In this document: piece by piece, positions 7,040-63,631 of the stretch
Position numbering within the stretch: position 1 is the first letter of the stretch
Layout: every line of letters starts with the position of its first letter
Assembly (NCBI GenBank): GCA_043820025.1
Contig: JBDRED010000028.1
Span: 12,274-76,273 of the forward strand
Length of the DNA: 64,000 nt
Direction of reading: 5' to 3'
DNA from: Elusimicrobiota bacterium
GTDB lineage: Bacteria > RUG730 > JBDRED01
Made by a program: the position numbers and the translations under genes
The notes under the pieces: generated by a model
Told to the model about the DNA's origin: nothing
The model's input: only the letters and a program-made list of their open reading frames with translations
The model's database searches: none

Positions 7040-7732
7040 TTATTCTTTGAACATATATCCTACCGTGGGCACGGTATCAATACGTTTTCCTTCTTTGCCG
7101 AGTTTTTTTCTTAGATTTGCCACATGGCGGTCAATCGTCTGGCTGGTTTTATAATACTGCTGTTCCCATACACTTTCAGAAAGATACATCCTGGTCAATA
7201 CCTTATTTTTCTTTTTCAAAAATAAGTAAAGCAATGAAAATTCTTTTGGAGTTAATGTAATCTCCTTATTTGAAACAAAAGCTACTCTGGTTTCCATATT
7301 AATTGTAATCTCTCCGGACTGAAGCTCTATATCATCCTTTTGTATATGGCTATATCTTTGTATTATAGCTTCTATGCGCGCATTGAATGTAGCGGGGAAT
7401 ACGGGCTTTATTAAATAATCCTCAACACCCATCGTAAACGCCTTAACCTCATCCTCATAATTATAATCATCCTTTGACGAGAGAATAACAACAGGAATTG
7501 ATTGAGTAGGAATATTTTTTTTCAATATACCAAGCAGATCAACTGCGTTAAAATCAGTCAGCACCCTGTCAGCTATTACAATATTTGGATTATCTTTCCA
7601 GGCCATATCTATGCCCTGTTCGCCTTTTGATGTTATTAGAAAGGTTACTTCGTCCTTAACATTATACAATATTTCTTGAAGCGATTTTACGGTATTTGAA
7701 TCTGAAGAAATTATAAGAATTTTCTTTTTCAT
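7040..7732 (-). CDS. OmpR/PhoB-type response regulator (receiver + winged helix), orphan
   Basis: Start corrected to MKKKILIISSDSN (ATG 7732). Receiver residues IVIADRVL (Asp), VVILSS, LIKP. C-terminal LTPKEFSLLYLFLKK..VDRHVANLRKKL..TVPTVGYMF. No kinase gene is adjacent. Confidence 0.85.
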   Translation of the reverse strand: MKKKILIISSDSNTVKSLQEILYNVKDEVTFLITSKGEQGIDMAWKDNPNIVIADRVLTDFNAVDLLGILKKNIPTQSIPVVILSSKDDYNYEDEVKAFTMGVEDYLIKPVFPATFNARIEAIIQRYSHIQKDDIELQSGEITINMETRVAFVSNKEITLTPKEFSLLYLFLKKKNKVLTRMYLSESVWEQQYYKTSQTIDRHVANLRKKLGKEGKRIDTVPTVGYMFKE

Positions 7733-7787
7733 GAATAAATTATATATAAATTTGCCTTTAAAAACAATAAAATAATACAAAGGCAGT

Positions 7788-7954
7788 GGGATTAGTCAAC
7801 ACATGTGACACCCCAGGTAAACATAGCCGCTGAGTAGAATGAATTTAGAGTTGCCCATAAATGGGTTTTTGTTTGGATGTTAATTTACCATGGATTTCTG
7901 ATTTGCAGGAATGACAAAGAGAAAGCAGGGTGTCACATGTATTGCAGCATTCCC
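7788..7954. mobile_element. MITE-like non-coding element, small member (167 bp)
   Basis: Terminal inverted repeats GGGATTAGTCAACACATGTGACACCCC (7788-7814) and GGGTGTCACATGTATTGCAGCATTCCC (7928-7954). The termini and the internal TAGAATGAATTTA block match the 516-bp element at 32931-33446. Confidence 0.6.
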
Positions 7955-7959
7955 AAAAA

Positions 7960-9738
7960 TTAAAAACTATAGGATACGGTGGCATTCCATTTAACGCGTT
8001 CGCCCGGAACAGAGTATAATAACTCGTCAATATCTTCAAACATTAAACTATCAAACTCTGAATTATTCATCACAGTCCACTCGCTCTGAAAACATATTTT
8101 TTTATTGGGTTTATATACCGTTTTAATTGCCCATGAAGACCTTTCATTGCCGCTTAAAAAAAGCTTTGAGTCAGACATAGACCACCTGGCGCAAAACACA
8201 ATACTTCGTCCGGCCAACACTTTAACAACAGCGCTTATTGACTCGCCTGCATAACTTTTACTCTGAAGATCTACATACTTAAAATAGCGGGTATATGACA
8301 AGCTTAGGCTTATTGGTTCAGCGCCTTGATTAACTTTATATCGAAGATATGAATCCTTTCTACTATTAGTGTCACTGCCCCTTGTATAAATATCCCTATC
8401 CTTTTCTTGGTATTTAACTCCAAATTTAGTGTCATTTATCTCATAAAATATCTCAGCTGAATACATATCATCTGTCACCGGCAGTCCATATTTAATTTCA
8501 TAGACACCTTTATCGCTATCCCACAATGCGTTAGCGCTATGATTAAAAATGTCATACATTCCCGCAAAGGAAATTTTACCCGCCCTACTCGCTAATTTAA
8601 ACCTGTATCCTTTTTCATCCCTGCATCTCAAATACATTGACGGCCTGTTCATGCTTATTGCATTGGCATAAGGATTGTAGTAATTCTTATCATAGTTTCT
8701 CAGCGACACGCTCCACGCGCAAAGTTTATTATTTATACTGCTAAGCGTTATTATATTGGCTGAGTTATTCCTGTTTTTAGACAATTCTCCTTCAAATTTG
8801 AGCAGGGTATTTGAAACATTACAATAAAAACCCAAGTAGTTTTCTTGATATCCTGTGTTTAGAAAATATGCCGAGTCGTAAAGCAGTGTTCTGCTCAATC
8901 TATAATTGATTAGCCCTAAATATCCTTGAAAACCGCTATTCTTCCCTCCTATCTCATAAGATAGATTAATCCCTTTCACATCGTCTACAACGCCATTATT
9001 TATTGTCACGCTCTTATTAGTATTAAGCTCGTCAAAATCTGTTTTCACTCCGCTCAAAGCAATACCGGTATTTGAATAAAAAAAAGTAATCTGAGTTTTG
9101 TTAAATATTTTTTTATCCAACGCCGCTCCATTCAATCTTGAACTATAAACGCAATACGCGCCATCTTTATATTCCGCGCTCTGCGGAGCAATTCTAATCC
9201 TATATCTTCTTGAATAAGGCATTGAAATATCGGGTAAGAAACCCTGCTTTATTCCTTTAAAATTTCCAAAAGTCAGTCCCTGCCCAAATCTTGCTTTATA
9301 ATTGCCCAGTATCCAATCGCAATGTTTTGACTTATACCCAAAGTATTTTTTGCTTATAATATTTTTTTGACTCATGCTTACGCTGAAATTTACAAATTCC
9401 AACATTGAAATACTATGCCCGATAATCCCAAAATAATACCTATCAAGAATATTGTCCCACTTAAGCGCTGCTGTTAAGCGCGGGGCTGAATTATCGTCAT
9501 TATATGTATATGACCCGGCTGAAAGATTAAGATATTTAGATGTTTTTTTATCATCGTTTGAAAATAACCGGCTGTCATAATATTCCTCCAGCATCTCTAA
9601 ATATGCCGTCTCGTCAATGTCGCCGCTGATATAAAGATCAATTATTTCATCTTCAAAATTAATTGATTCGTTTATCACAGCAAAACTATTAACAGATAAA
9701 CCAAATATACACAAAATAATCCCAAATATTTTTATCAT
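7960..9738 (-). CDS. outer-membrane beta-barrel protein, unknown function
   Basis: 592 aa. Signal peptide MIKIFGIILCIFGLSVNSFA, beta-rich Y/N/S/G composition, GNYKARFGQGLTFGN motif and a C-terminal ..NATVSYSF (terminal Phe). Confidence 0.6.
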   Translation of the reverse strand: MIKIFGIILCIFGLSVNSFAVINESINFEDEIIDLYISGDIDETAYLEMLEEYYDSRLFSNDDKKTSKYLNLSAGSYTYNDDNSAPRLTAALKWDNILDRYYFGIIGHSISMLEFVNFSVSMSQKNIISKKYFGYKSKHCDWILGNYKARFGQGLTFGNFKGIKQGFLPDISMPYSRRYRIRIAPQSAEYKDGAYCVYSSRLNGAALDKKIFNKTQITFFYSNTGIALSGVKTDFDELNTNKSVTINNGVVDDVKGINLSYEIGGKNSGFQGYLGLINYRLSRTLLYDSAYFLNTGYQENYLGFYCNVSNTLLKFEGELSKNRNNSANIITLSSINNKLCAWSVSLRNYDKNYYNPYANAISMNRPSMYLRCRDEKGYRFKLASRAGKISFAGMYDIFNHSANALWDSDKGVYEIKYGLPVTDDMYSAEIFYEINDTKFGVKYQEKDRDIYTRGSDTNSRKDSYLRYKVNQGAEPISLSLSYTRYFKYVDLQSKSYAGESISAVVKVLAGRSIVFCARWSMSDSKLFLSGNERSSWAIKTVYKPNKKICFQSEWTVMNNSEFDSLMFEDIDELLYSVPGERVKWNATVSYSF

Positions 9739-9746
9739 AAATTATT

Positions 9747-10589
9747 TTAAAAATACAAACTAAAGCTAGTCAGATGCTGTAAAGATAAGTATTGATGCGA
9801 CCTTATGCTGTAATCTAACCTTAACTTAAACAGCTTAACGCAAAATCCGGCTCCTATAAACGCGGGCCTGGCCTGCATTCCAAACAACAGCTTAAGCCCA
9901 TCCGTAATTTTGTAATCAATGCCATATCTAAAAGATAAGTCGTATGGTATTTCTTTGAATGATTCCATATACATATTGACACGCGCATTAATAAGAAGAT
10001 TAACGCCTAATACAATTTCTCTTCCAATATTTTCTTTATAGTTTCTGCCTATCTGCGCTGAATTAATATTTTTTATCAGGAATGATATAAAGACCGGATT
10101 TTTTTTAAACCCGCACGATATGTCAAATGCAGGGACATATTCAATTTTATTAATGTAATCCTGCTCATTAATCTCTAAACTCATAAATCGAACAGCTAAC
10201 CCAAGACTGCTTATTTCTTTTATTCTGAGTCCGCAAGCTAAAACGATCTCCTGTTCTTGATATAACTCTCTTTTTCCAAAAACAGAATAACCTGCGGCCA
10301 GGCAAACAGACTTCAATACCGGAAATCCAAAAGCCGCAGCATTGACTGAAAGCTCTTCCATATTAAATATTCTTGTATAGAATGTCTGTATGCTAAATCT
10401 ATTAAGAAGAACTAAATTGCATGGCATATAAAATATGCTTAATGGTTCAGGCTCGCTGACTGCCTGCGCGCCTCCGCAGCCGGCGCTATAAGCTGAAAGA
10501 AGTTTATATTCAAACGCAGAAAATCCATCTGTTACTAAAAACACCACCACAGCGCAAACCATTACCCTGCATCGCAAGAATTTTACCAT
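9747..10589 (-). CDS. small outer-membrane beta-barrel, weak PorV/PorQ/FadL-like N-terminal signature
   Basis: 280 aa. Signal peptide ..VTDGFSA, then SAYSAGCGGAQAVSEPEPLSIFYMPCNLV (G-x-GGA ... NP-x-x-L-like pattern). C-terminal SFSLYF. Confidence 0.4.
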   Translation of the reverse strand: MVKFLRCRVMVCAVVVFLVTDGFSAFEYKLLSAYSAGCGGAQAVSEPEPLSIFYMPCNLVLLNRFSIQTFYTRIFNMEELSVNAAAFGFPVLKSVCLAAGYSVFGKRELYQEQEIVLACGLRIKEISSLGLAVRFMSLEINEQDYINKIEYVPAFDISCGFKKNPVFISFLIKNINSAQIGRNYKENIGREIVLGVNLLINARVNMYMESFKEIPYDLSFRYGIDYKITDGLKLLFGMQARPAFIGAGFCVKLFKLRLDYSIRSHQYLSLQHLTSFSLYF

Positions 10590-10641
10590 CGCCTTCTATC
10601 CCTCCCATAAAATTACCGTAACATCAAAAATATTTACGCGC

Positions 10642-12222
10642 TTACAATCTTTTACTGATCACTACTACCCGCTTATTAGTTTCCGTTTTACCTGTTTCCT
10701 TATCAACCGCCTCAGCATAAATCACATACATCCCTATTGGCAAAACAACGCCGTTCTCATCAGTCCCATCCCAAATAAGCTCTTCGCAAAAATCGGTTTC
10801 TCCATGCCACAGATCTTTAACCATTCTGCCTTGGATATCAAATATTTTAATGCCTGCGCTTCTTCCATGAGTATTAATTTTTATTAATGCGTTCCTGTGT
10901 TTTCCTTCTCCAAACGGCGAAAATACAGAAACAGGAACCGCCATAAGACAATCAATGCTTTCATCCTTATCATTGGTAATATTATAATTATACCCGGCGC
11001 CGGGATCAGGCTCGTCAATAATCCAATCACCCGCGCTGTTTGTATCGAGCGGAAATGTTTGAATATTTTGTTTTCTTTTTATTGAACTGCCGGTTGATCC
11101 TCCCCATACAACACAATCCTCTTGAGAATAATCATTGCTGACTGCCAGCCATTGTCCGCAGTCTATACCTTCCTCAAACAAAAGTTTATTAGCGTCGCTC
11201 CAAATCGTGTCATTATTCGCATAAGCAATAAAATCAATAATTTCATTGTCGCGATTTCGTAATATTATAGTATTATCAGTGCCCGCCAAGCCTGTGTCAG
11301 TTGTATAAAATCGTAACGTATTATTCACGGAACTTGCCTCATCAATATCGGATGAATTAAAATAAATTAAAATATAACTATTTTTGGACGGTATAATATC
11401 CGGAAATGTTTTTATTAGCTTAGCGCCCTCGTACAATTTATATCCGCCAATACTGCCTTCTGATTCCGTTATATACAGCTCTACCCAATCCTTTTCGCTC
11501 GAATAAGGCATTATCTCAGTGATATATCCATGAAATTTTCCTTGAGGCAAAATATCCTCTTCATCAATCTGCGATATACTGTTTAACATTCCCGGAGTAG
11601 CCCCGGTTTCACATGCCTTCCAATTACTCTCAGTATCCGCGCCAAGAGCGTTAATTCTCTCAACAGAAATACCATTACCCGGATCAAATGGGATACCATC
11701 CAACCCATCATCATCCGCATTTAAATAACTGCCGGGCGACTCTGTAATTTTTGGCGTTCCATAAGTACTTACACAGGTTCCGCTTGAATCGAACAAAGTA
11801 ATCGGGTCAGAAGAATTACTAAGTCCACTGCCGCCAAGCGTAGAATCTTTGGTAGTAAAAATAACAGCGTCGTTACCAAAGTCATATACCTGAGATCCGC
11901 CTGCATAATCCGCGTCTAAGATAACAGCATACGCTCCTGCTGGCACAACAAATGTTTTAAACACCGCCTTACTATCAGTTATTACGCCATGCGCTTCCGG
12001 ATCCCAAGGAACAATATTATCTAAGCCGTCGCCGTCAGTAAATTTATAGCCATTAATATTAATCTCCGTTGAATCAGCATTATACAATTCAATAAACTCG
12101 CCGCCGGATTCATCATCCGCATTTGCCATTACTTCATTAATAACCAATGAATAACTGTTCGAATACGCAAATCCGCAAATGATAAATACCGGCAATAAAA
12201 ATATAAAATACCTTACTGCCAT
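10642..12222 (-). CDS. secreted protein with two lamin-tail domains and a C-terminal FlgD-Ig-like domain
   Basis: 526 aa with a signal peptide. LTD1 is LVINEVMANADDESGGEFIELYNADSTEININGYKFTDGDG. LTD2 is ITEIMPYSSEKDWVELYITESEGSIGGYKLYEG. C-terminus reads FSPFGEGKHRNALIKIN..IKIFDIQGRMVKDLWHG..WDGTDENGVVLPIGMYVIYAEAVD. Confidence 0.75.
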   Translation of the reverse strand: MAVRYFIFLLPVFIICGFAYSNSYSLVINEVMANADDESGGEFIELYNADSTEININGYKFTDGDGLDNIVPWDPEAHGVITDSKAVFKTFVVPAGAYAVILDADYAGGSQVYDFGNDAVIFTTKDSTLGGSGLSNSSDPITLFDSSGTCVSTYGTPKITESPGSYLNADDDGLDGIPFDPGNGISVERINALGADTESNWKACETGATPGMLNSISQIDEEDILPQGKFHGYITEIMPYSSEKDWVELYITESEGSIGGYKLYEGAKLIKTFPDIIPSKNSYILIYFNSSDIDEASSVNNTLRFYTTDTGLAGTDNTIILRNRDNEIIDFIAYANNDTIWSDANKLLFEEGIDCGQWLAVSNDYSQEDCVVWGGSTGSSIKRKQNIQTFPLDTNSAGDWIIDEPDPGAGYNYNITNDKDESIDCLMAVPVSVFSPFGEGKHRNALIKINTHGRSAGIKIFDIQGRMVKDLWHGETDFCEELIWDGTDENGVVLPIGMYVIYAEAVDKETGKTETNKRVVVISKRL

Positions 12223-12398
12223 AAAGCATTACCGCCTAAATAATTAATTTGAAGTTGTTTTTTCTAAAAGAGATTTACAGTAAGTAAATCATTTTGAATT
12301 GTTCGAAATAAAAGGCATCACCGCTTTTTTATGTAGAATTGTATCGTTTTTTATGCGCTTAATTGCATGTTAAAATGTATTAAATAGCCTGTTGTGTG

Positions 12399-12974
12399 TC
12401 AATTTATTTTTGATAAATATTTATCTATTATCGCTTTCTCAACATCGCTTTTTAGTTTTTTATTTAACACATACACAATATTTCCGTACTTGCCTGCTTC
12501 ATCCTTTTTCGCAGGCCATGCCACCCAAAGGCCTTTTTTTCCCTGCATTACTCCGCAGTGAACAGCAATAGAATTATTAAACACAATCACTGCGTTTGCT
12601 TTTCTACTGCTATTCTTTTTTAAGATATTTATTTCAGAAATTTTAAATTCAATTGCGGTATTTATCTGCCGTGTTTCAGCGCCGGAACGGACTGATTCAA
12701 TAATTTTGTTTTTTAAATCAGGATCTATAATCTCGACCTGCGGAAGTTCAAACCCGTCAATTACTTTATAATGCGGCAGTAAAATGCTTTTATCTTCATA
12801 CAGGATTATATCTTCAATAACTAAAAATCCGCCTGCTATAATCCGCGCTCGCGTCTGTGTATTATCATGAACAGACACAACGCTTGTAATTTCTAAAAAA
12901 GATTCAGCAAAAACCAATCCGCTGAAAACTAAACAAAGAAACGCTAAAACAATGAGACATATTTTAAATTTCAT
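12399..12974 (-). CDS. exported tandem SpoVG-like domain protein
   Basis: Start corrected to MKFKICLIVLAFLCLVFSGLVFA/ESF (Sec signal). The C-terminal half, ANAVIVFNNSIAVHCGVMQGKKGLWVAWPAKKDEAGKYGNIVYVLNKKLKSDVEKAII, aligns by eye with SpoVG (..[32 protein letters not shown].HP..). The N-terminal half looks like a degenerate second copy. Confidence 0.5.
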   Translation of the reverse strand: MKFKICLIVLAFLCLVFSGLVFAESFLEITSVVSVHDNTQTRARIIAGGFLVIEDIILYEDKSILLPHYKVIDGFELPQVEIIDPDLKNKIIESVRSGAETRQINTAIEFKISEINILKKNSSRKANAVIVFNNSIAVHCGVMQGKKGLWVAWPAKKDEAGKYGNIVYVLNKKLKSDVEKAIIDKYLSKIN

Positions 12975-12981
12975 ATAGATC

Positions 12982-13488
12982 CTATGCCCTAACAAACAAC
13001 CCTATAATGTTTATTAAAAGCAGTATTGCTCCGGGTATCATCGCAAGAATGTTTTTCCATGTAATTCTGCTGTTAGGGTCCATGTCAGGAGCAGACTTAG
13101 CGTTCGCCTTATTAACCGCTTCCTGAATATAAAGAAGCGGAATAAATTTTAACATGCCTATTATCACAAGAACAGGCGCCAGGCCAAAGATCAAAAACAA
13201 AACATACCAGATTGTAAGATAAAGCGCGCTCTTGCTTAGCTTAATATTATGCTTCTCAACCTCATTACTCACATGCGCAAAACACTGATAACAAAAAATA
13301 ATTGCAATTACAGCTCTCGTTATTGGCATAATATTTTCACCGGTTTTCTTCTTTATGTAAACCCAATACTTATAAAACCAATAAATGTCATAAATCCCCA
13401 GCGTGCATAATGACATAACAGCCAGCTTCATCTTTGACACAGGGAAAAATATCGCCCCATCATTCGCATTTACTTTTTGTTCGCTCAT
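12982..13488 (-). CDS. small polytopic membrane protein (DUF4234-like LGIYDIYWFY motif)
   Basis: 168 aa with 4 predicted TM segments. The SD AGGAGGTAAG precedes the ATG. Confidence 0.35.
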   Translation of the reverse strand: MSEQKVNANDGAIFFPVSKMKLAVMSLCTLGIYDIYWFYKYWVYIKKKTGENIMPITRAVIAIIFCYQCFAHVSNEVEKHNIKLSKSALYLTIWYVLFLIFGLAPVLVIIGMLKFIPLLYIQEAVNKANAKSAPDMDPNSRITWKNILAMIPGAILLLINIIGLFVRA

Positions 13489-57126: not shown

Positions 57127-57154
57127 TTATATCCTGAGTACTTATTTTTGTCAA
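57126..57154 (-). promoter_or_regulatory. hrcA operon promoter (TTGACA-17 nt-TATAAT) abutting CIRCE
   Basis: The reverse strand reads cTTGACAaaaataagtactcaggaTATAATTAGCACTC. Confidence 0.8.
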
Positions 57155-57888
57155 GAAGTAATACTTCTTGCAGCAGAAAAGACAAACGCGTCAACACAGC
57201 CGGCGCCTGCTTTTCTTTTTAAAAGTTTCGCGCATGCGTGCAAAGTCGCGCCTGTGGTTGCTATATCATCCACCAAAAGAATTCTTTTATTTTTTAATAA
57301 TATTGGATTATTTATGCTAAACGCGTCCTTAAGTTCATTTTTTCTCTCCTCTTCGGACAATCCGAAAAGCGGTTTTGTATTCTTACTTCTGATTAAAACG
57401 CTATTATTAATCGGCGTAGATATTTTTTCATGCAGCAGATGAGCAATAAGCTCAGCCTGATTAAACCCGCGTTTTCTAAGCCTCTTTTTATGCAGAGGCA
57501 CAGGGATAATATAGTCCCATGATCCGTGAATAATTCTTTTAATATTAATCTCCGGCCTAAACAAAAGCGTTCTATACTCGCTTATCAAATATTTTTTGTT
57601 TGAATATTTTAGACGATGAATAAGTTTGCGCAATGCGGCATTATAATAAAATACAACGCATAATGAATCGTAGCTTCTCTTTCTGCCTTTGCACACAGCG
57701 CACGAATTCCTCGCAGCAGTAACAGGCATGCCGCAGTTAAGGCATCTATTTGTCGCATAGTTTATTGTTTTAAAACATGTCAGGCATATACGCGAATTTT
57801 GATCATCAATTATTTTCCTGCAAACCGCGCATCTGTGCGGAAGTATTAAATTCCAAAATATTTTTATAATTTTCCCGGCTAAGCTCAT
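57151..57888 (-). CDS. comF: ComF-family phosphoribosyltransferase-fold protein
   Basis: Start corrected to MSLAGK (an ATGA overlap with the upstream stop). Contains N-terminal Cys pairs CAVC..CLTC..CLNCG..CAVC and LLVDDIATTGATL. Confidence 0.85.
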   Translation of the reverse strand: MSLAGKIIKIFWNLILPHRCAVCRKIIDDQNSRICLTCFKTINYATNRCLNCGMPVTAARNSCAVCKGRKRSYDSLCVVFYYNAALRKLIHRLKYSNKKYLISEYRTLLFRPEINIKRIIHGSWDYIIPVPLHKKRLRKRGFNQAELIAHLLHEKISTPINNSVLIRSKNTKPLFGLSEEERKNELKDAFSINNPILLKNKRILLVDDIATTGATLHACAKLLKRKAGAGCVDAFVFSAARSITS

Positions 57889-58436
57889 AACCTTTCGCTC
57901 ACCCCTGACACAACGCCCCATCCATCAATTGTGCGTTTCATGATATTTTCCGCAAGAATCTTTGCCGCAGCATCCTGAGCTTCTAATTCGCTTGTGAGCC
58001 CGCCTGCGCTTATGTCATTAATTGAGTAATTAAGCTTTACCTCTAACCGTTTCTCGACCCAGACAACATCTTTTGTTTTTAGATCAACAAACGCTATATC
58101 CACCCATATCCATAATTGGTAAACCTTTGGAGCGTAAAATTCATCAAACTCAACCGGTTCAACTATATACCTGGTTATAGCTCCCTGCAAAAGCGCGTCC
58201 GCATCCTGAACTGCGCCAATACCTACGCGGCTGTCTCTGACAAACGCGTTTTTTACCTCATACACAAGTTTCTGTGTCATTGTGGTATGGCCTGTCGGAT
58301 CAACAAAATCAGCAATAGCGATCTTTCTTATATTCTCAGGAATATTTATCGGCACTCGGTGATACCCATTATCAGCGCAGCCGCTCATTAATCCCATTAA
58401 TAAAAACCCGCTCAACGCGCAAAATCTTTTTTTCAT
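57885..58436 (-). CDS. LptE-like lipoprotein (second paralog) downstream of the giant barrel
   Basis: Start corrected to MKKRFCALSGFLLMGLMSGC (lipobox; GGAGGT SD). The body KIAIADFVDPTGH..KLVYEVKNAF..ALLQGAITRY mirrors the LptE pattern at 26783-27307. Confidence 0.5.
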   Translation of the reverse strand: MKKRFCALSGFLLMGLMSGCADNGYHRVPINIPENIRKIAIADFVDPTGHTTMTQKLVYEVKNAFVRDSRVGIGAVQDADALLQGAITRYIVEPVEFDEFYAPKVYQLWIWVDIAFVDLKTKDVVWVEKRLEVKLNYSINDISAGGLTSELEAQDAAAKILAENIMKRTIDGWGVVSGVSERL

Positions 58437-58456: not shown

Positions 58457-61400
58457 TTAAAATATTATAGAAACATTTACGCTTAACGCAAATGCCCAAA
58501 AATCTCCTTTGTCAAATTCCGGATAATGCGCATAAGTAAAGGTTGCGCCAATCTTTGTCTTAACATTCTTACTTGCTTCATAATCAACATCTGTTGACCA
58601 TGAATACCTGTTTTCATTATCCGTTTCAACATTAAGCGAGCTCCTCTTAAAATCCGCTTTTATTGTGCTGTCAATTATAAGCCTGTTGTCGAACTTAAGG
58701 TAAATACGCGTAAGCGGCAGTTTTACGGCTGTAGGCAGAGCAAAATCAGCCCTTGTCTGAATACTCGCCGAACGCGTTGTTATATCTTGAGTAAGCTCCT
58801 GATTTATATTTCTTTCTTCTGAAAAACTCTCGCCATATTTCGGCGTTATACGCCAAGGGCCATACTGCATTCCCACCTGCATTGACCTTGACATTGCGTT
58901 GCCGTTTCTCGTTATCTTTTGCTGTATAATATCAAAGTCCTTGTCCCAGCTCTTATTATAGTCTAGAGAAATTTCAAATCTGCTGAATAAATTAAATCTG
59001 TATGACCCGCCTGTATTATATTGATCCTTCATTGATATTCTAAATGTCTCGATTGTCTTAAATAAATATTTGCCGGACACCTTGCCATTTGTTATATATT
59101 TTGATAAAAATAACATTTTTTCAATTTCATCCATACTTGCCAAGACATCCGGGTATACTATTGTCTGCGTTTCTTCAACTGTGCCTGTCACCTCTTTCAT
59201 ATCGTCTATCTTGCTATAGTTAACCGTTGTGTCTAATGTGGATATGGGGCTTAGCTTATTTTGTAAATTTAAAAACGCTAATGGCTGCCATTTCCCCGTA
59301 AGCCTTACTGTATCGCGCAATGATTTTGAAACCCTATTGTATTTATTATTAAACTCATCAACGCCATGAACATTACGAATAAAGAATTTATCCCAAACAA
59401 TGTAATCCTTATCAACATTATCCCACCTGTCGCTGTCGTCTAAATTATAACTGCCGGAAAAATTAAGCGAGGAAACAGGAGAACACCATCTCCACGGCAA
59501 AAACTTTTTTACAGACAAGGACGCGTTAACAGCTCCTCTTGATTCGCGGCTGATGTTTTTTGTTGTAAGTTCTACGCGGCCTGTTTCCGTGCTCATATCC
59601 TGGGTATAATTATAATCCTCGCCCACACTCATTTGATAAGAAACCGACGGATTAAACCATCTCTCTAAAAGAAGAATCCTGGACGTCACGCTCGCGCTAT
59701 AATCAGCGGATTTATCATAATAATTCATATCGCCCGACATAAGAGACTTTCTTTCCTTTGTCTTAGTATATCCGGCAGACGGGTTAAGAGTAAGGAGCCA
59801 TGGAACATTAAACTGCGTCTCAGCATTATAATTATCTGTTGTCTCAAGCAGAGCCTCATAACCTCTGGTTGGAGTCGTAGCCCTAAAGACACCGTATTCC
59901 GTCCATTTATTTGAGTGGCCATAACTACCGCTGACATTCTGAGGCAAAAAGCTTCTTATAAAACCCGGCAAAAGCAGAAATCTTCGAGGCACACTATAAG
60001 AAAACCCTGAAGTATAGCTCTCTGTTTCATCCTTACGGTTTAAACGTTCCGTCTCATCAATACTTCTTAGCGCTGTTCCGGTAAATACCGGCAGATATTT
60101 TAGTTTTAGGCTTCCGCCGACTTTCCCGCTCTCGCTTCGAACCAAACCCTCTTCTTCAATACTCGCGTTTGTTTTTTGAGCGTCCGGTATATTACTCTCT
60201 GACTTAATATACTCCGCGTTAAGAGGCATAAAACTTATTCTATTAAACAGCATATTTGCTCCATAAGCATCCTCTTCCCTGCCTGAAGTAATACTGCTTG
60301 TGCCTACCAATTCCCCTTCGCTCGTGCCTGTTGTGATTTTTTCAAAATCAGCGTCAATGTGTTTGTAATGCCCGCTCACATCCATCCATCCGGGCAGAGA
60401 AATATCGGCCGCAGTTTTATACGCGATTCCTTCCTTGCGTTTAACGTCTTCTAAATATATATCATTAATCATTAGTTCGCCTTTTGTTATGGTAAAGTTT
60501 GTATAGTTGCCCACGCCTATTCTCACATCAGTGATGTTAGTCAGCCTAGGCGCGCCTTTATAACCGGTAAATCCGTCGGGAAACCCGTCTAAATCCTTAT
60601 CTTCCAGTTCAATCTCTATGGTTTTCCATCCTGTCCATGTAACCGTTGTGTCCCATATAAAATAATTACTTTCCCCTGCTCCTACTTTCATATACATGTT
60701 TTCCCCGCTGTTATCTCCATATACAAAAAACACGAGACGCCTATACGCCGAGAAATCCTGCGCGCGCCCAAATTGATAGAGAGTATAACCATTATCTCCG
60801 GGCGCTAAATTTTCATATTCCAAAAGCAAAGCCTGCTCATCTTCATCCTCATACAACTTGCCTTTATACAGCTTTTCTGCGAGCGTTTTTTTAATGTCTT
60901 CGAGCTTATCCGTATAATTTGAATTAATCTTTTCATTTACAGCCTGCACGCGCATTGTGCCGGCAGATGTTGCAGGCGTTATGATTGGTTTTTCCCAGTT
61001 AGTATTAACGCTTCGCAGTCCGGCAAGTTTTATCTCGCCATTAATCGCGAAACCTGTCGTGTTTTTTATCGTTAGCCTGACATGTTTTATTGCCACCCAA
61101 TTATTGGAATTCGCTGCCGTAATATTCATCGGAGTAATAAACTGCTTCCAGCCTGACCAGCTGACACCGTCAAATGTCTGTCCGTTTTCTGCGACAATAG
61201 TATTTAAGCCGCTGCCATTCGTTCCATACGAAGAACCCATCAATGGGTCGCCGTTGGATAAAATACTGTCTCCATCCAGGTCTTCTGTGTCTATCTCTCC
61301 GTTATCCGGACGTATTCTTGCATACGGTTCATTTAACGGATTATATTCCCATCCTATATCCTCTCCTCTATTTAAAGTTCCATCATGGTTTACATCTTCA

Positions 61401-63631
61401 GTATCCAGCACATTATCCTGGTCCACGTCCTCGGGAATAACTCCGTAATCAATAAACACATCCTCTCCTTTATTGTCTCCGTAAATGGCAAGCTCCATAA
61501 ATTCCTTTTGCGAATAATCTGATCCGATATTTGATATAGGATACATGATCGCGGCCTCTTCGCCCGCTTCGAGGCTGTAACCAACTTTAAGAACCTGTTC
61601 CTTTTTCTCATTATCATCAAGATTAGGATTAATATCACTAGCCGGGATTTCTTCATCATCCCAGGTAATATGCGTAGTATTAGGAGAGACCCCTGAAAGA
61701 GTTCTCGCTATCCTCCATGAATCCCCATTCATTGGCACATTGTCCTCAAACTTTATGCCCTCCATATTATCAATAAGCGCCTTGCCTTCAATATTCGGAT
61801 CCTGCCAGCTCTTAGCGATTTCTCCTCTTAACGTAGTCTTTATCGGCATCCATCTTGGCTCTAAATTAATCATTGTGTCAGCGTCAATTATTGTTACGCT
61901 CTTTGGAGTTGACCGTATTTGCGGAATAGCCGCGCTTTTTGACGACCTGTTATCAATAACTGTCGCGCCGATAAACCCGTCATGCGGCAGGTCGTATGTT
62001 GTGCGCAAACCAACAAGCGTCTGCTGGTATTGCCCGCCAAAAGGCATGTATTCGTATGTTACCGTAATCTTGCTATCCTTGCCTATACTGCCCTCATTCA
62101 TAAATGTAATAAATCCGATATCATAGTCTATAATATAATCAACATCCCTAGCCAAAACATTTCCGTCTATCTCAATACGCTCCGACCCGATTACAAGATT
62201 AGGCCTTACGTTAAATGTTTTTATTCTATGATAATACTCTGTATAGATTATGTAATGATGCTTCGCGCTGTTTACGTCATAAATGTCAGGGTAATCAGTT
62301 GAGAAAGGCTTATCTGAAACAAAATCCATAATACCTGTGTCAAAATCAATATTAACTTTATCGTATATATTTTCCCAGCCGGGGACAGCGTCTCTATTCT
62401 GGTCAATTATTTTAACTATAAAATCGCGGCCAAGCGTTCCTTTAATAATTTTTCTATTGCCTAAGTAATAGTAATTTTTTTGTTCCTGCGCGCCGGCAAC
62501 CTGAGCAGTCTCAGGCGCATCCTTTAAAAGCACACAATCATTTTCTGAACCGTTTGCGAACCACGCGCTGTCACCCTTTTTCTTATAATTTATTGCAATA
62601 ATATACCCCGGGTCGATCGTTGTCTTAAAGCTAATTATATTTTTGGCAAAATCGATTGTGTAATCCCGGCCCGGATATTGCAGATCAAAGTAATAAGTCG
62701 CATCGCTCGCAAGCGATCCGTTTATATATTTTAATGCCGCCCTCTCTGCGCCGCTGTAATTATTATTGCCGTTTCTATCGTCAATATAAACCTTAATATT
62801 TTCTATATTGCCGTCAGGCTCTATATTGCCAAATCTCAATGAGTAATGTTTTCTGCGCATGTAAGAGGTATCGAACATGTCCTTTTTTTCAAAGGTTGTG
62901 TTTCCGGAAAACCGTTTTGTTTCTGTAATACCCTTTGTGCGCGACGCAATACCCATCATACCAAGCTTATTGTATTTCGCCTTAAATCTTAATCCGAACA
63001 AGTTTTTATTATATCCGACAAATTCCGTAGAAGGCAGGCTTAGATTAATATCTCCAAAAGCTATTTCCTCTATAACCTCGTCATTTTCAGCCACTGCTCC
63101 ATAATCATCGATTATATCGCCTTTCTTATCCCCCCTATAAACCACTGATATATCGCGTTTATTAGTTGTCTGGTCGTTATAATCAACATCAACCGATATC
63201 TTTCTCCCAACCTTGCCTTTGATCTTTACCTGTAATTCCTGCGTCATATCAAAACCTTTTGTTACGCCTGCGGGAGTGCCGCGCTTCTCGCCTTCATCTT
63301 TGTCATTATAATTAACAAACCCATATTTAATCCCTATAGATTTTTGTCCCGAAATACTGAGCTTTGACTGATATGGCAGGTCAAATGTAAAGCCTTCTTC
63401 CTGTAAGGCTTCATGAAGCGTGCATGTAGAAAATGCTGTCTCTATTTGCATCTCCGGAATTTTTTTGGGCGAATAAGCGCTTTTTTCTTTTTCTTTACGC
63501 ATGCGTTTCCAGTAAGTTCTATTTAGTTTTATATTTGAATCTGAAACCACGCCTGTGCCATATACCGGGAATATTGCGCTTACCCAGAAAACATAAAGCA
63601 GGATTATTGTGATGAGTTTATTTTTCAGCAT
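58457..63631 (-). CDS. giant (1724 aa) outer-membrane beta-barrel protein, possibly SprA/Sov-like
   Basis: Signal peptide MLKNKLITIILLYVFWVSAIFPVYG. Composition is beta-rich. Acidic DxDxDG-like clusters occur mid-protein. The C-terminus reads FWAFALSVNVSIIF. The N-terminal block ..VKIKGKVGRKISVDVDYNDQ..EEIAFGDINLSLPSTEFVGYNKNLFGLRFKAKYNKLGMMGIASRTKG recalls SprA N-terminal repeats, but this is from memory and unverified. Confidence 0.55.
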   Translation of the reverse strand: MLKNKLITIILLYVFWVSAIFPVYGTGVVSDSNIKLNRTYWKRMRKEKEKSAYSPKKIPEMQIETAFSTCTLHEALQEEGFTFDLPYQSKLSISGQKSIGIKYGFVNYNDKDEGEKRGTPAGVTKGFDMTQELQVKIKGKVGRKISVDVDYNDQTTNKRDISVVYRGDKKGDIIDDYGAVAENDEVIEEIAFGDINLSLPSTEFVGYNKNLFGLRFKAKYNKLGMMGIASRTKGITETKRFSGNTTFEKKDMFDTSYMRRKHYSLRFGNIEPDGNIENIKVYIDDRNGNNNYSGAERAALKYINGSLASDATYYFDLQYPGRDYTIDFAKNIISFKTTIDPGYIIAINYKKKGDSAWFANGSENDCVLLKDAPETAQVAGAQEQKNYYYLGNRKIIKGTLGRDFIVKIIDQNRDAVPGWENIYDKVNIDFDTGIMDFVSDKPFSTDYPDIYDVNSAKHHYIIYTEYYHRIKTFNVRPNLVIGSERIEIDGNVLARDVDYIIDYDIGFITFMNEGSIGKDSKITVTYEYMPFGGQYQQTLVGLRTTYDLPHDGFIGATVIDNRSSKSAAIPQIRSTPKSVTIIDADTMINLEPRWMPIKTTLRGEIAKSWQDPNIEGKALIDNMEGIKFEDNVPMNGDSWRIARTLSGVSPNTTHITWDDEEIPASDINPNLDDNEKKEQVLKVGYSLEAGEEAAIMYPISNIGSDYSQKEFMELAIYGDNKGEDVFIDYGVIPEDVDQDNVLDTEDVNHDGTLNRGEDIGWEYNPLNEPYARIRPDNGEIDTEDLDGDSILSNGDPLMGSSYGTNGSGLNTIVAENGQTFDGVSWSGWKQFITPMNITAANSNNWVAIKHVRLTIKNTTGFAINGEIKLAGLRSVNTNWEKPIITPATSAGTMRVQAVNEKINSNYTDKLEDIKKTLAEKLYKGKLYEDEDEQALLLEYENLAPGDNGYTLYQFGRAQDFSAYRRLVFFVYGDNSGENMYMKVGAGESNYFIWDTTVTWTGWKTIEIELEDKDLDGFPDGFTGYKGAPRLTNITDVRIGVGNYTNFTITKGELMINDIYLEDVKRKEGIAYKTAADISLPGWMDVSGHYKHIDADFEKITTGTSEGELVGTSSITSGREEDAYGANMLFNRISFMPLNAEYIKSESNIPDAQKTNASIEEEGLVRSESGKVGGSLKLKYLPVFTGTALRSIDETERLNRKDETESYTSGFSYSVPRRFLLLPGFIRSFLPQNVSGSYGHSNKWTEYGVFRATTPTRGYEALLETTDNYNAETQFNVPWLLTLNPSAGYTKTKERKSLMSGDMNYYDKSADYSASVTSRILLLERWFNPSVSYQMSVGEDYNYTQDMSTETGRVELTTKNISRESRGAVNASLSVKKFLPWRWCSPVSSLNFSGSYNLDDSDRWDNVDKDYIVWDKFFIRNVHGVDEFNNKYNRVSKSLRDTVRLTGKWQPLAFLNLQNKLSPISTLDTTVNYSKIDDMKEVTGTVEETQTIVYPDVLASMDEIEKMLFLSKYITNGKVSGKYLFKTIETFRISMKDQYNTGGSYRFNLFSRFEISLDYNKSWDKDFDIIQQKITRNGNAMSRSMQVGMQYGPWRITPKYGESFSEERNINQELTQDITTRSASIQTRADFALPTAVKLPLTRIYLKFDNRLIIDSTIKADFKRSSLNVETDNENRYSWSTDVDYEASKNVKTKIGATFTYAHYPEFDKGDFWAFALSVNVSIIF

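Follow-up and report, generated by a model that had tools for sequence, protein, structure and literature searches.

We analyzed a 64,000-nt stretch of contig JBDRED010000028.1 from an Elusimicrobiota bacterium (hereafter, the window; all coordinates are window positions), concentrating on an operon of three co-directional minus-strand open reading frames (ORFs) that encode a secreted protein of 526 aa and two predicted outer-membrane barrels of 280 aa and 592 aa, denoted B280 and B592. The secreted protein, which carries two lamin-tail domains (LTD) and a C-terminal domain (CTD) resembling type IX secretion system (T9SS) sorting tails, is probably anchored by B280. That all three genes encode parts of one outer-membrane module is, in our estimation, evenly balanced, and a nucleic-acid (DNA) substrate of this module, suggested by domain and gene context, is possible but rather doubtful.

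The initial annotation of the window described three tightly spaced genes, a secreted double-LTD protein with a T9SS-like tail and two barrels encoded downstream of it, and all of this holds. Gene 1 (10642–12222, minus strand), defined by its ORF and Pfam matches, encodes a signal peptide followed by the two LTDs and the CTD. Gene 2 (9747–10589, minus strand) encodes B280, a short divergent 14-strand barrel of the PorV/PorQ family according to NCBIfam matches, alignment, structure modeling, fold search and a phylogenetic tree. Gene 3 (7960–9738, minus strand) encodes B592, a barrel of ~24 strands in the structure model, which homology searches place in a family of barrels bearing helix-hairpin-helix (HhH) domains, here without the HhH. 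The intergenic gaps are 52 and 8 nt, a typical signal peptide opens each of the three products, and the last residue of either barrel is Phe. The minus strand carries nearly every gene of the window. Gene 2 is preceded by a strong Shine–Dalgarno sequence, GGGAGG, and the B592 start lies 8 nt past the B280 stop, the intervening sequence being A/T-only; since this short gap holds no Shine–Dalgarno sequence, B592 is likely translationally coupled to B280.

The double-LTD protein and its private barrel

The LTD family (PF00932) scores 73.5 bits in gene 1 (gathering threshold, 34.3) over two stretches. The best of these forms domain 1 (11755–12156, minus strand; residues 23–156), and the second, in a region matching the LTD repeats of class relatives, forms domain 2 (10999–11547, minus strand; residues about 226–408). 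They are followed by a C-terminal beta-sandwich (10654–10962, minus strand; residues 421–523), a T9SS-CTD-like sorting or anchoring tail delineated by a genome-built hidden Markov model (HMM) and by sub-threshold Pfam and NCBIfam matches, in which all four motifs listed in the initial annotation, FSPFGEG, IKIFDIQGRMV, WDGTDENG and GMYVIY, are found. All matches of the C-terminal 100 residues lie under the family cut-offs, with FlgD_ig at 18.9 bits, T9SS type A CTD (TIGR04183/PF18962, Por_Secre_tail) at 12.9 bits against 23 and 13.7 against 27, and T9SS type B CTD (CHU_C, PF13585) at 16.1–20.1 bits against 27; the tail also matches the CTD end of the PorU model, again below the cut-off.

The initial annotation had assigned this tail to an FlgD-Ig-like domain, and comparison within the genome sustains the assignment. 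Starting from the gene 1 tail, an HMM was built iteratively on the sequences of this genome alone, and it recognizes the domain in 19 ORFs, each time at the very C-terminal end; giants of 1,200–4,700 aa are among them. The gene 1 tail has an E-value of 8e-21 and is thus homologous to 18 other C-terminal tails. The paralogous tails score 14–27 bits for type A CTD, and two of them reach the CHU_C cut-off (28.0 and 28.4 bits). When nine tails were scanned singly against Pfam, each matched at least one of FlgD_ig, CHU_C and Por_Secre_tail at 14–31 bits, close to the cut-offs or, in a few cases, above them. Because one model unites the 19 ORFs and the tails scanned alone retrieve the same related families, the gene 1 tail is, judging by its sequence relationships, a divergent member of the T9SS-CTD/FlgD-Ig beta-sandwich superfamily and not a random Ig fold.

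B280 matches the NCBIfam model PorV_fam (NF033709) with an E-value of 6.5e-7 and 29.2 bits, short of the cut-off of 90. The same model matches all five in-phylum B280 orthologues (best E-value 4e-8), and the N-terminal motif AFEYK..SA.S.G...FYNP aligns to its positions 12–52. PorV belongs to the FadL-type fold class. In the AlphaFold model of B280 (pLDDT 72, pTM 0.72; five-sequence alignment) 14 strands follow a poorly modeled N-terminal segment, and the best folds in PDB are FadL, TbuX and TodX (TMq 0.60–0.66), so that B280 is predicted to be a 14-strand FadL-type barrel as in the PorV/PorQ family. PorV of 6H3I is absent from the top 50 fold matches, among which FadL-type barrels are present, and the B280 sequence profile yields no match to PDB chains even at E≤10. 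Word-indexed homology searches with B280 and with B592 returned only the respective query. The suggested kinship of the partner barrel is thus retained for PorV/PorQ/FadL and lost for PorP/SprF, since neither barrel matches PF11751 or TIGR03519 at E≤1 in Pfam and NCBIfam.

The pairing of a CTD protein with a barrel of this kind is a genome-wide rule in the window's genome (1.44 Mb, 81% complete). PorV_fam has 21 matches there, 13 of them above the cut-off, and 12 of the 19 CTD ORFs are directly followed by a PorV-family gene (gaps of −25 to +100 nt), four more having one directly upstream; the phylum's six other genomes display this pattern too. The pair formed by the LTD protein and B280 is the most divergent instance of this pairing in the window's genome, and the earlier proposal of a barrel dedicated to the LTD protein is borne out by their adjacency here, in the in-phylum relatives G002 and G004, and in Ignavibacteria and Zixibacteria.

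Longer PorV-like proteins were observed as well. Two near-identical cassettes in G000, on contigs C3 (2232–6751) and C39 (33772–38338), consist of genes for a CTD protein (399–416 aa), a 708-aa PorV-like protein with a long C-terminal extension and another CTD protein (386–389 aa), and in G003, G004 and G006 PorV-like proteins of 554–625 aa also come after ~400-aa CTD proteins.

The export route of CTD proteins is probably a compact SprA/Sov-like protein of 1724 aa, shorter than canonical SprA, which is encoded outside the operon (58457–63631, minus strand) and was rightly noticed in the initial annotation: it matches TIGR04189 with 157.7 bits (E-value 2.5e-46), below the cut-off of 200. The body of PorU was found in none of the seven phylum genomes, where only the CTD part of the model matches; nor were GldK, GldL and GldM, a result that is weak for GldL and GldM, as control genomes are also silent.

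The large barrel and pairwise links in distant phyla

B592 is modeled as a ~24-strand barrel (pLDDT 68, pTM 0.66), whose PDB fold matches are generic and weak (ushers, BtuB, LptD; TM-scores 0.3–0.45). It has no family match in Pfam or NCBIfam and is single-copy, having no paralogue in its genome. An exhaustive HMMER search with B592 against 1.84 billion representative proteins gave only 11 matches, which marks its family, as far as sequence searches can tell, as rare and represented in no family library. Its identification as LptD, an usher or a TonB-dependent receptor was considered and rejected, given the lack of family matches, the low TM-scores and the absence of a plug or jellyroll. A crude alternate-residue estimate of lumen charge (28 basic and 16 acidic residues) is too rough to count as evidence.

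The membership of B592 in the HhH-barrel family follows from phmmer matches, an alignment of homologues (A1), a profile search and a comparison of barrel-only profiles: with the HhH region removed, the profiles of the two large-barrel groups align over 431 columns (99.6%, E-value 3e-24). Five of the ten aligned B592 homologues have an N-terminal HHH_3 domain of the ComEA type. This domain is absent from B592 and its four in-phylum orthologues and present in all examined family members from outside the phylum. The most conserved element of the family is the GNYKARFGQGLTFGN motif (9262–9306, minus strand), with G145, A149, F151, G152 and L155 in B592. Its columns are invariant or near-invariant in alignment A1, and it is kept as GDY.A.FGQGL in the Bacteroidota/Ignavibacteria group, the family form being GxY.A.FGxGL. 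Both this motif and the terminal Phe had already been pointed out in the initial annotation.

The five better-assembled genomes of the phylum each have genes for the LTD protein, B280 and B592. Among the in-phylum relatives, only G002 and G004 have the first two next to each other, overlapping by 4 nt, and there a conserved polytopic membrane protein of ~267 aa is encoded directly before the LTD gene (L052 3645–4445 in G002, where the two genes overlap; L053 2745–3551 in G004); no homologue of this protein was found in the window's genome. The B592 homologues of G002–G004 adjoin genes for a [FeFe]-hydrogenase subunit and the HydG maturase (L007 6782–12562; L009 6042–13392).

Each pairwise link between the three families recurs in distant phyla. 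As regards the two barrels, a B280 homologue fused to two HHH_3 domains is encoded directly upstream of an HhH-barrel in two metagenome contigs (L041, hhalign 99.4%, E-value 3.5e-21; L042, 98.7%, 1.5e-16). In a Cloacimonadia metagenome-assembled genome (MAG; L055), a 272-aa B280-type gene (134.6 bits with the B280 HMM) overlaps the start of the gene for a 614-aa HhH-barrel (99.6%, E-value 1.2e-24), and in Saprospira grandis (L045) and three Bacteroidota-type contigs (L046, L047, L049) the gene for a PorV-family barrel of 271–286 aa lies 0–43 nt before that of a ~695-aa HhH-barrel.

The LTD protein and the small barrel are linked in Ignavibacteria and Zixibacteria MAGs (L056 and L057, respectively), which encode an LTD-LTD-CTD protein of 561 and 563 aa, collinear with gene 1 and having two LTDs (90 bits). 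Three parts of gene 1 match the Ignavibacteria protein in BLASTP with E-values of 2e-8, 3e-6 and 9e-8, and the tails of both proteins pass the cut-offs of CHU_C (33.4 and 34.5 bits) and FlgD_ig. The gene overlaps that of a B280-type barrel (268 and 270 aa; ~100 bits), and the barrel gene has a further overlap with the next gene, for an HD/HD_assoc dGTPase-like protein. The shared operon (L056 1917–7919; L057 2701–7889) opens with a protein of 511–524 aa, and a CAP12/Pycsar-type TIR protein is encoded just upstream in L056; the Ignavibacteria form of this first protein, 511 aa long and encoded upstream of the LTD gene, was tried as a large-barrel homologue and dismissed as not significant (hhalign, 3%).

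Finally, the LTD protein and the large barrel meet in L043 and L044, where the gene order is a phospholipase D (PLD)-type nuclease, an HhH-barrel, a secreted double-LTD protein and a protein of the metallo-beta-lactamase fold (MBL). L043 (5556–10914) is a high-GC metagenome contig and its nuclease is PLDc_2; the double-LTD proteins of both loci end in Cys-TM-RRR, a tail that we read as MYXO-CTERM-like. The L043 LTD protein was considered as a direct homologue of gene 1 and discarded, as BLASTP is not significant and only the domain architecture is in common. A nucleoside-recognition “Gate” transporter and another MBL protein are encoded upstream in L043.

A maximum-likelihood tree was computed for 34 small barrels. 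One of its clades unites the in-phylum B280s with the barrels that have large-barrel partners in Cloacimonadia and L041 and with those that have LTD partners in Ignavibacteria and Zixibacteria, and the partner types interleave in it; the Bacteroidota small-barrel partners form their own well-supported clade nearby, and their orthology to B280 rests on size and synteny. All three components together are seen only in the window's operon among the loci found, and elsewhere only in pairs. Taken together, the recurrence of all three pairwise links in distant phyla would reinstate the triad as a functional unit.

Several further features flank the operon. Directly upstream of gene 1 (12399–12995, minus strand), an exported tandem SpoVG-like protein, possibly the product of an accessory gene, is encoded (Pfam SpoVG, 50.6 bits; a signal peptide is visible); its full-length homologue with a signal peptide (L053 2052–2597) lies two genes upstream of the LTD–B280 pair in G004. 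An ordinary 120-aa SpoVG is also encoded in the window's genome (contig C14). The 176-nt gap before gene 1 includes a promoter-like site, TTGACA, 17 nt, TACATT (12374–12402, minus strand), ~150 nt upstream of the gene, which comes from a consensus scan only and is not evidence of function. On the other side, the inverted repeat aatacatgtgacaccc / ggggtgtcacatgt (~7802–7815 and ~7930–7945) spans most of the 179-nt gap between the B592 stop and a response-regulator gene, and looks like a small element of the miniature inverted-repeat transposable (MITE-like) type. The response regulator, of the OmpR/PhoB type (7040–7780, minus strand), has no adjacent kinase gene; its homologue in G002 (L007 3514–4215, E-value 2e-30) lies ~2.5 kb from the B592 homologue.

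Proposed mechanism and alternative explanations

In the mechanism that we propose, the double-LTD protein would be exported by Sec and then probably cross the outer membrane via the compact SprA-like translocon, which would recognize its C-terminal beta-sandwich. B280, as a private carrier or anchor, would bind the CTD and keep the LTD protein on the cell surface, a step suggested by the analogy with PorV–PorU, PorQ–PorZ and the PorP/SprF-type handling of type B CTDs, as well as by the one-cargo-one-barrel rule in the genome. Most likely, B280 would also dock the surface LTD receptor beside the large ~24-strand channel B592, because in other phyla small barrels of this lineage regularly share an operon with the large barrel. 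In the least secure step, extracellular nucleic acid would be caught at the surface and passed into the periplasm.

Four observations point to a nucleic-acid substrate. Homologues of the two barrels carry ComEA-type HhH domains, always and N-terminally in the large barrel outside this lineage, sometimes and C-terminally in the small one, and these domains are probably periplasmic; barrel termini are normally periplasmic. The neighbors of the family genes include a PLD nuclease, MBL proteins, a BFN nuclease and a nucleoside:H+ symporter (L049), Smr (L048) and a dGTPase-like HD protein. The exported tandem SpoVG-like protein is encoded upstream of gene 1 and also near the pair in G004. Lastly, LTDs are known in the extracellular nucleases Xds and ExeM (PMC6746945, PMC6085458).

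Taken further, the LTD-CTD protein, B280 and B592 could constitute a new device for nucleic-acid capture and translocation, independent of TonB, pilus and secretin and spread across the Fibrobacteres–Chlorobi–Bacteroidetes (FCB) group and neighboring candidate phyla, an extension that we consider unlikely. If such a device existed, most lineages might carry built-in periplasmic ComEA modules, the window's lineage being a derived form that has lost them, a corollary to which we give the same low credence. In this equally unlikely scenario, the window's lineage might then depend on its surface LTD receptor, perhaps together with the SpoVG-like protein that it exports.

A number of observations weigh against the proposed module and its substrate. 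In the nearest relatives the three genes do not stay together as a unit, which, taken by itself, is one of the outcomes that the initial annotation had named as refuting its interpretation: G003 and G005 have a TolC-family gene after the LTD gene and an antiporter gene beside B280, and none of the four closest genomes has its B592 homologue next to the other two, the homologue lying near hydrogenase genes. The CTD and B280 both score under the curated family cut-offs, both barrel models are of medium confidence, and support for the small-barrel clade is only moderate (81–93); by HMM or hhalign, generic PorV paralogues of the window's genome score at least as close to B280 as the Bacteroidota small barrels do. 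As for DNA, neither barrel has an HhH in the window's lineage, so that the link is indirect, and an HMM that recovers all positive controls finds no ComEA-type HhH domain anywhere in the assembly. The genome encodes ComEC (C25), ComF (57151–57921, beside the SprA-like gene) and three secretins, and a conventional route may exist. Moreover, LTD has no demonstrated DNA-binding role, and Xds requires it neither for nuclease activity nor for localization (PMC6746945).

Some of the same observations bear on the somewhat unlikely explanation that only genes 1 and 2 are linked, as a T9SS-like cargo and its private PorV-type shuttle or anchor, and that B592 is an unrelated general porin or outer-membrane housekeeping protein, downstream by chance. 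It would account for the location of B592 homologues elsewhere in G002–G005 and in the contig that carries P0003, among housekeeping genes, for the single copy of B592 without a paralogue, and for the eleven other cargo–barrel pairs that lack such a third gene. However, the 8-nt gap between B280 and B592 without a Shine–Dalgarno sequence suggests coupling, B280-type barrels directly precede members of the large-barrel family in L041, L042 and Cloacimonadia, as PorV-family barrels do in four Bacteroidota loci, and a double-LTD protein adjoins the large barrel in L043 and L044; these three independent pairwise links make an unrelated B592 unlikely. The triad could also be read as a self-contained mini secretion system, a reduced motor-free analogue of SprA–PorV with B592 as the translocon for the LTD protein and B280 as the PorV-like shuttle, given that cargo, PorV-like barrel and large barrel share one operon, that searches of the phylum detected no PorU, GldK, GldL or GldM, and that the best fold matches of the large barrel, although of low TM-score, are protein-conducting usher pores. 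We regard this as improbable, since an SprA homologue is present, many other CTD cargos have no such large barrel, the relatives keep the LTD–B280 pair without an adjacent large barrel, and the ComEA-type HhH domains on the family elsewhere point to DNA, not protein.

Least probable is the version of the initial annotation, in which a T9SS cargo as in Bacteroidota and, encoded after it, its cognate PorP/SprF-type barrel form a dedicated export or anchoring module. The CTD-like tail, the adjacent barrel and the SprA-like gene in the window speak for it, and its logic is that of the published SprB–SprF and PG1035–PorP pairs (PMC12618676, PMC9143113). Nevertheless, the host is not a member of the Bacteroidota but falls in a GTDB phylum of seven species genomes, whose members are titled Elusimicrobia (orthologous loci are labeled “uncultured Elusimicrobiaceae” and “uncultured Elusimicrobia bacterium” in public records); the barrel has no PorP_SprF match, matching PorV_fam and the FadL fold instead, and the CTD lies under both the type A and type B cut-offs. 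Only the general logic of a cargo with a private barrel survives from that version.

Comparison with known systems

In searches of a literature library, we found no published description of the operon, nor any paper joining PorV with Elusimicrobia or LTD with T9SS in the cargo–barrel sense. If correct, the proposed module would touch on several matters. Little is settled about how DNA and other large polymers pass the outer membrane of bacteria that lack competence pili, and within the FCB group only the TonB-dependent DdbCD/RA0C_RS04915 route has been studied; the operon ties two observations, private PorV-like anchors outside Bacteroidota and ComEA-tagged outer-membrane barrels, into one testable module. 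Furthermore, T9SS-style anchoring by tail and barrel where motor, ring and sortase are not detectable bears on T9SS evolution, and the LTD-CTD/B280 pair, if it is indeed a surface-display cassette, could serve protein display on diderm cells.

ComEA itself (HHH_3, TIGR00426, PDB 8dss/8dfk/2duy), the DNA receptor of natural transformation in the periplasm, is either free or membrane-anchored and works together with a pilus and a secretin. In other phyla, homologues of both barrels bear bona fide ComEA-type HhH; in contrast to ComEA, the module there forms a fusion with outer-membrane barrels, and it is missing from the window's own proteins. DdbC–DdbD of Bacteroides and RA0C_RS04915/04920 of Riemerella each combine a TonB-dependent DNA transporter with a surface DNA-binding lid (PMC12478041, PMC8459023), and resemble the proposed module in the concept of a channel and a surface-exposed substrate-binding partner for the uptake or use of DNA in pilus-poor FCB bacteria. 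They have no sequence relationship to the window's proteins, which show no Plug, TonB-box or CarboxypepD_reg and in which the partner would be held by a CTD and a barrel, not as a lipoprotein lid. Xds from V. cholerae and ExeM from S. oneidensis are, like gene 1, secreted cell-associated proteins with an N-terminal LTD in a DNA-handling context (PMC6746945, PMC6085458), whereas gene 1 has no nuclease or OB-fold domain.

PorV is a shuttle on the SprA translocon (PDB 6H3I), a case of a small barrel partnering a much larger one, as proposed here. In the PorU–PorV and PorZ–PorQ pairs, one protein retains its CTD, through which a FadL-type barrel of 14 strands holds it non-covalently (PMC5562754), as B280 would hold the LTD protein. 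B280 differs in having only about 250 mature residues and 29 bits against the PorV_fam cut-off of 90, while the window's genome has one barrel per cargo instead of one shared PorV, and the large ~24-strand partner is unrelated to SprA.

Along with these pairs, the closest parallel in published logic is provided by SprB–SprF of F. johnsoniae and PG1035–PorP–PorE of P. gingivalis, where the gene of a type B CTD surface protein adjoins the gene of a private barrel that recognizes the tail, fixing the protein on the surface (PMC12618676, PMC9143113). Common to these systems and to the window are a gene for a CTD-bearing surface protein and a gene for a private outer-membrane barrel; in addition, the Ignavibacteria and Zixibacteria proteins of the same architecture pass the cut-off of CHU_C, the type B family. 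The differences are that the window's barrel is PorV/PorQ-like, with the FadL fold, that the host is outside Bacteroidota, that PorE, PorU and GldKLM are not detected, and that a third, large barrel is linked. Thus, the operon is a variant of the logic of a CTD cargo with a private barrel, found in an unexpected phylum and joined to an uncharacterized family of large barrels.

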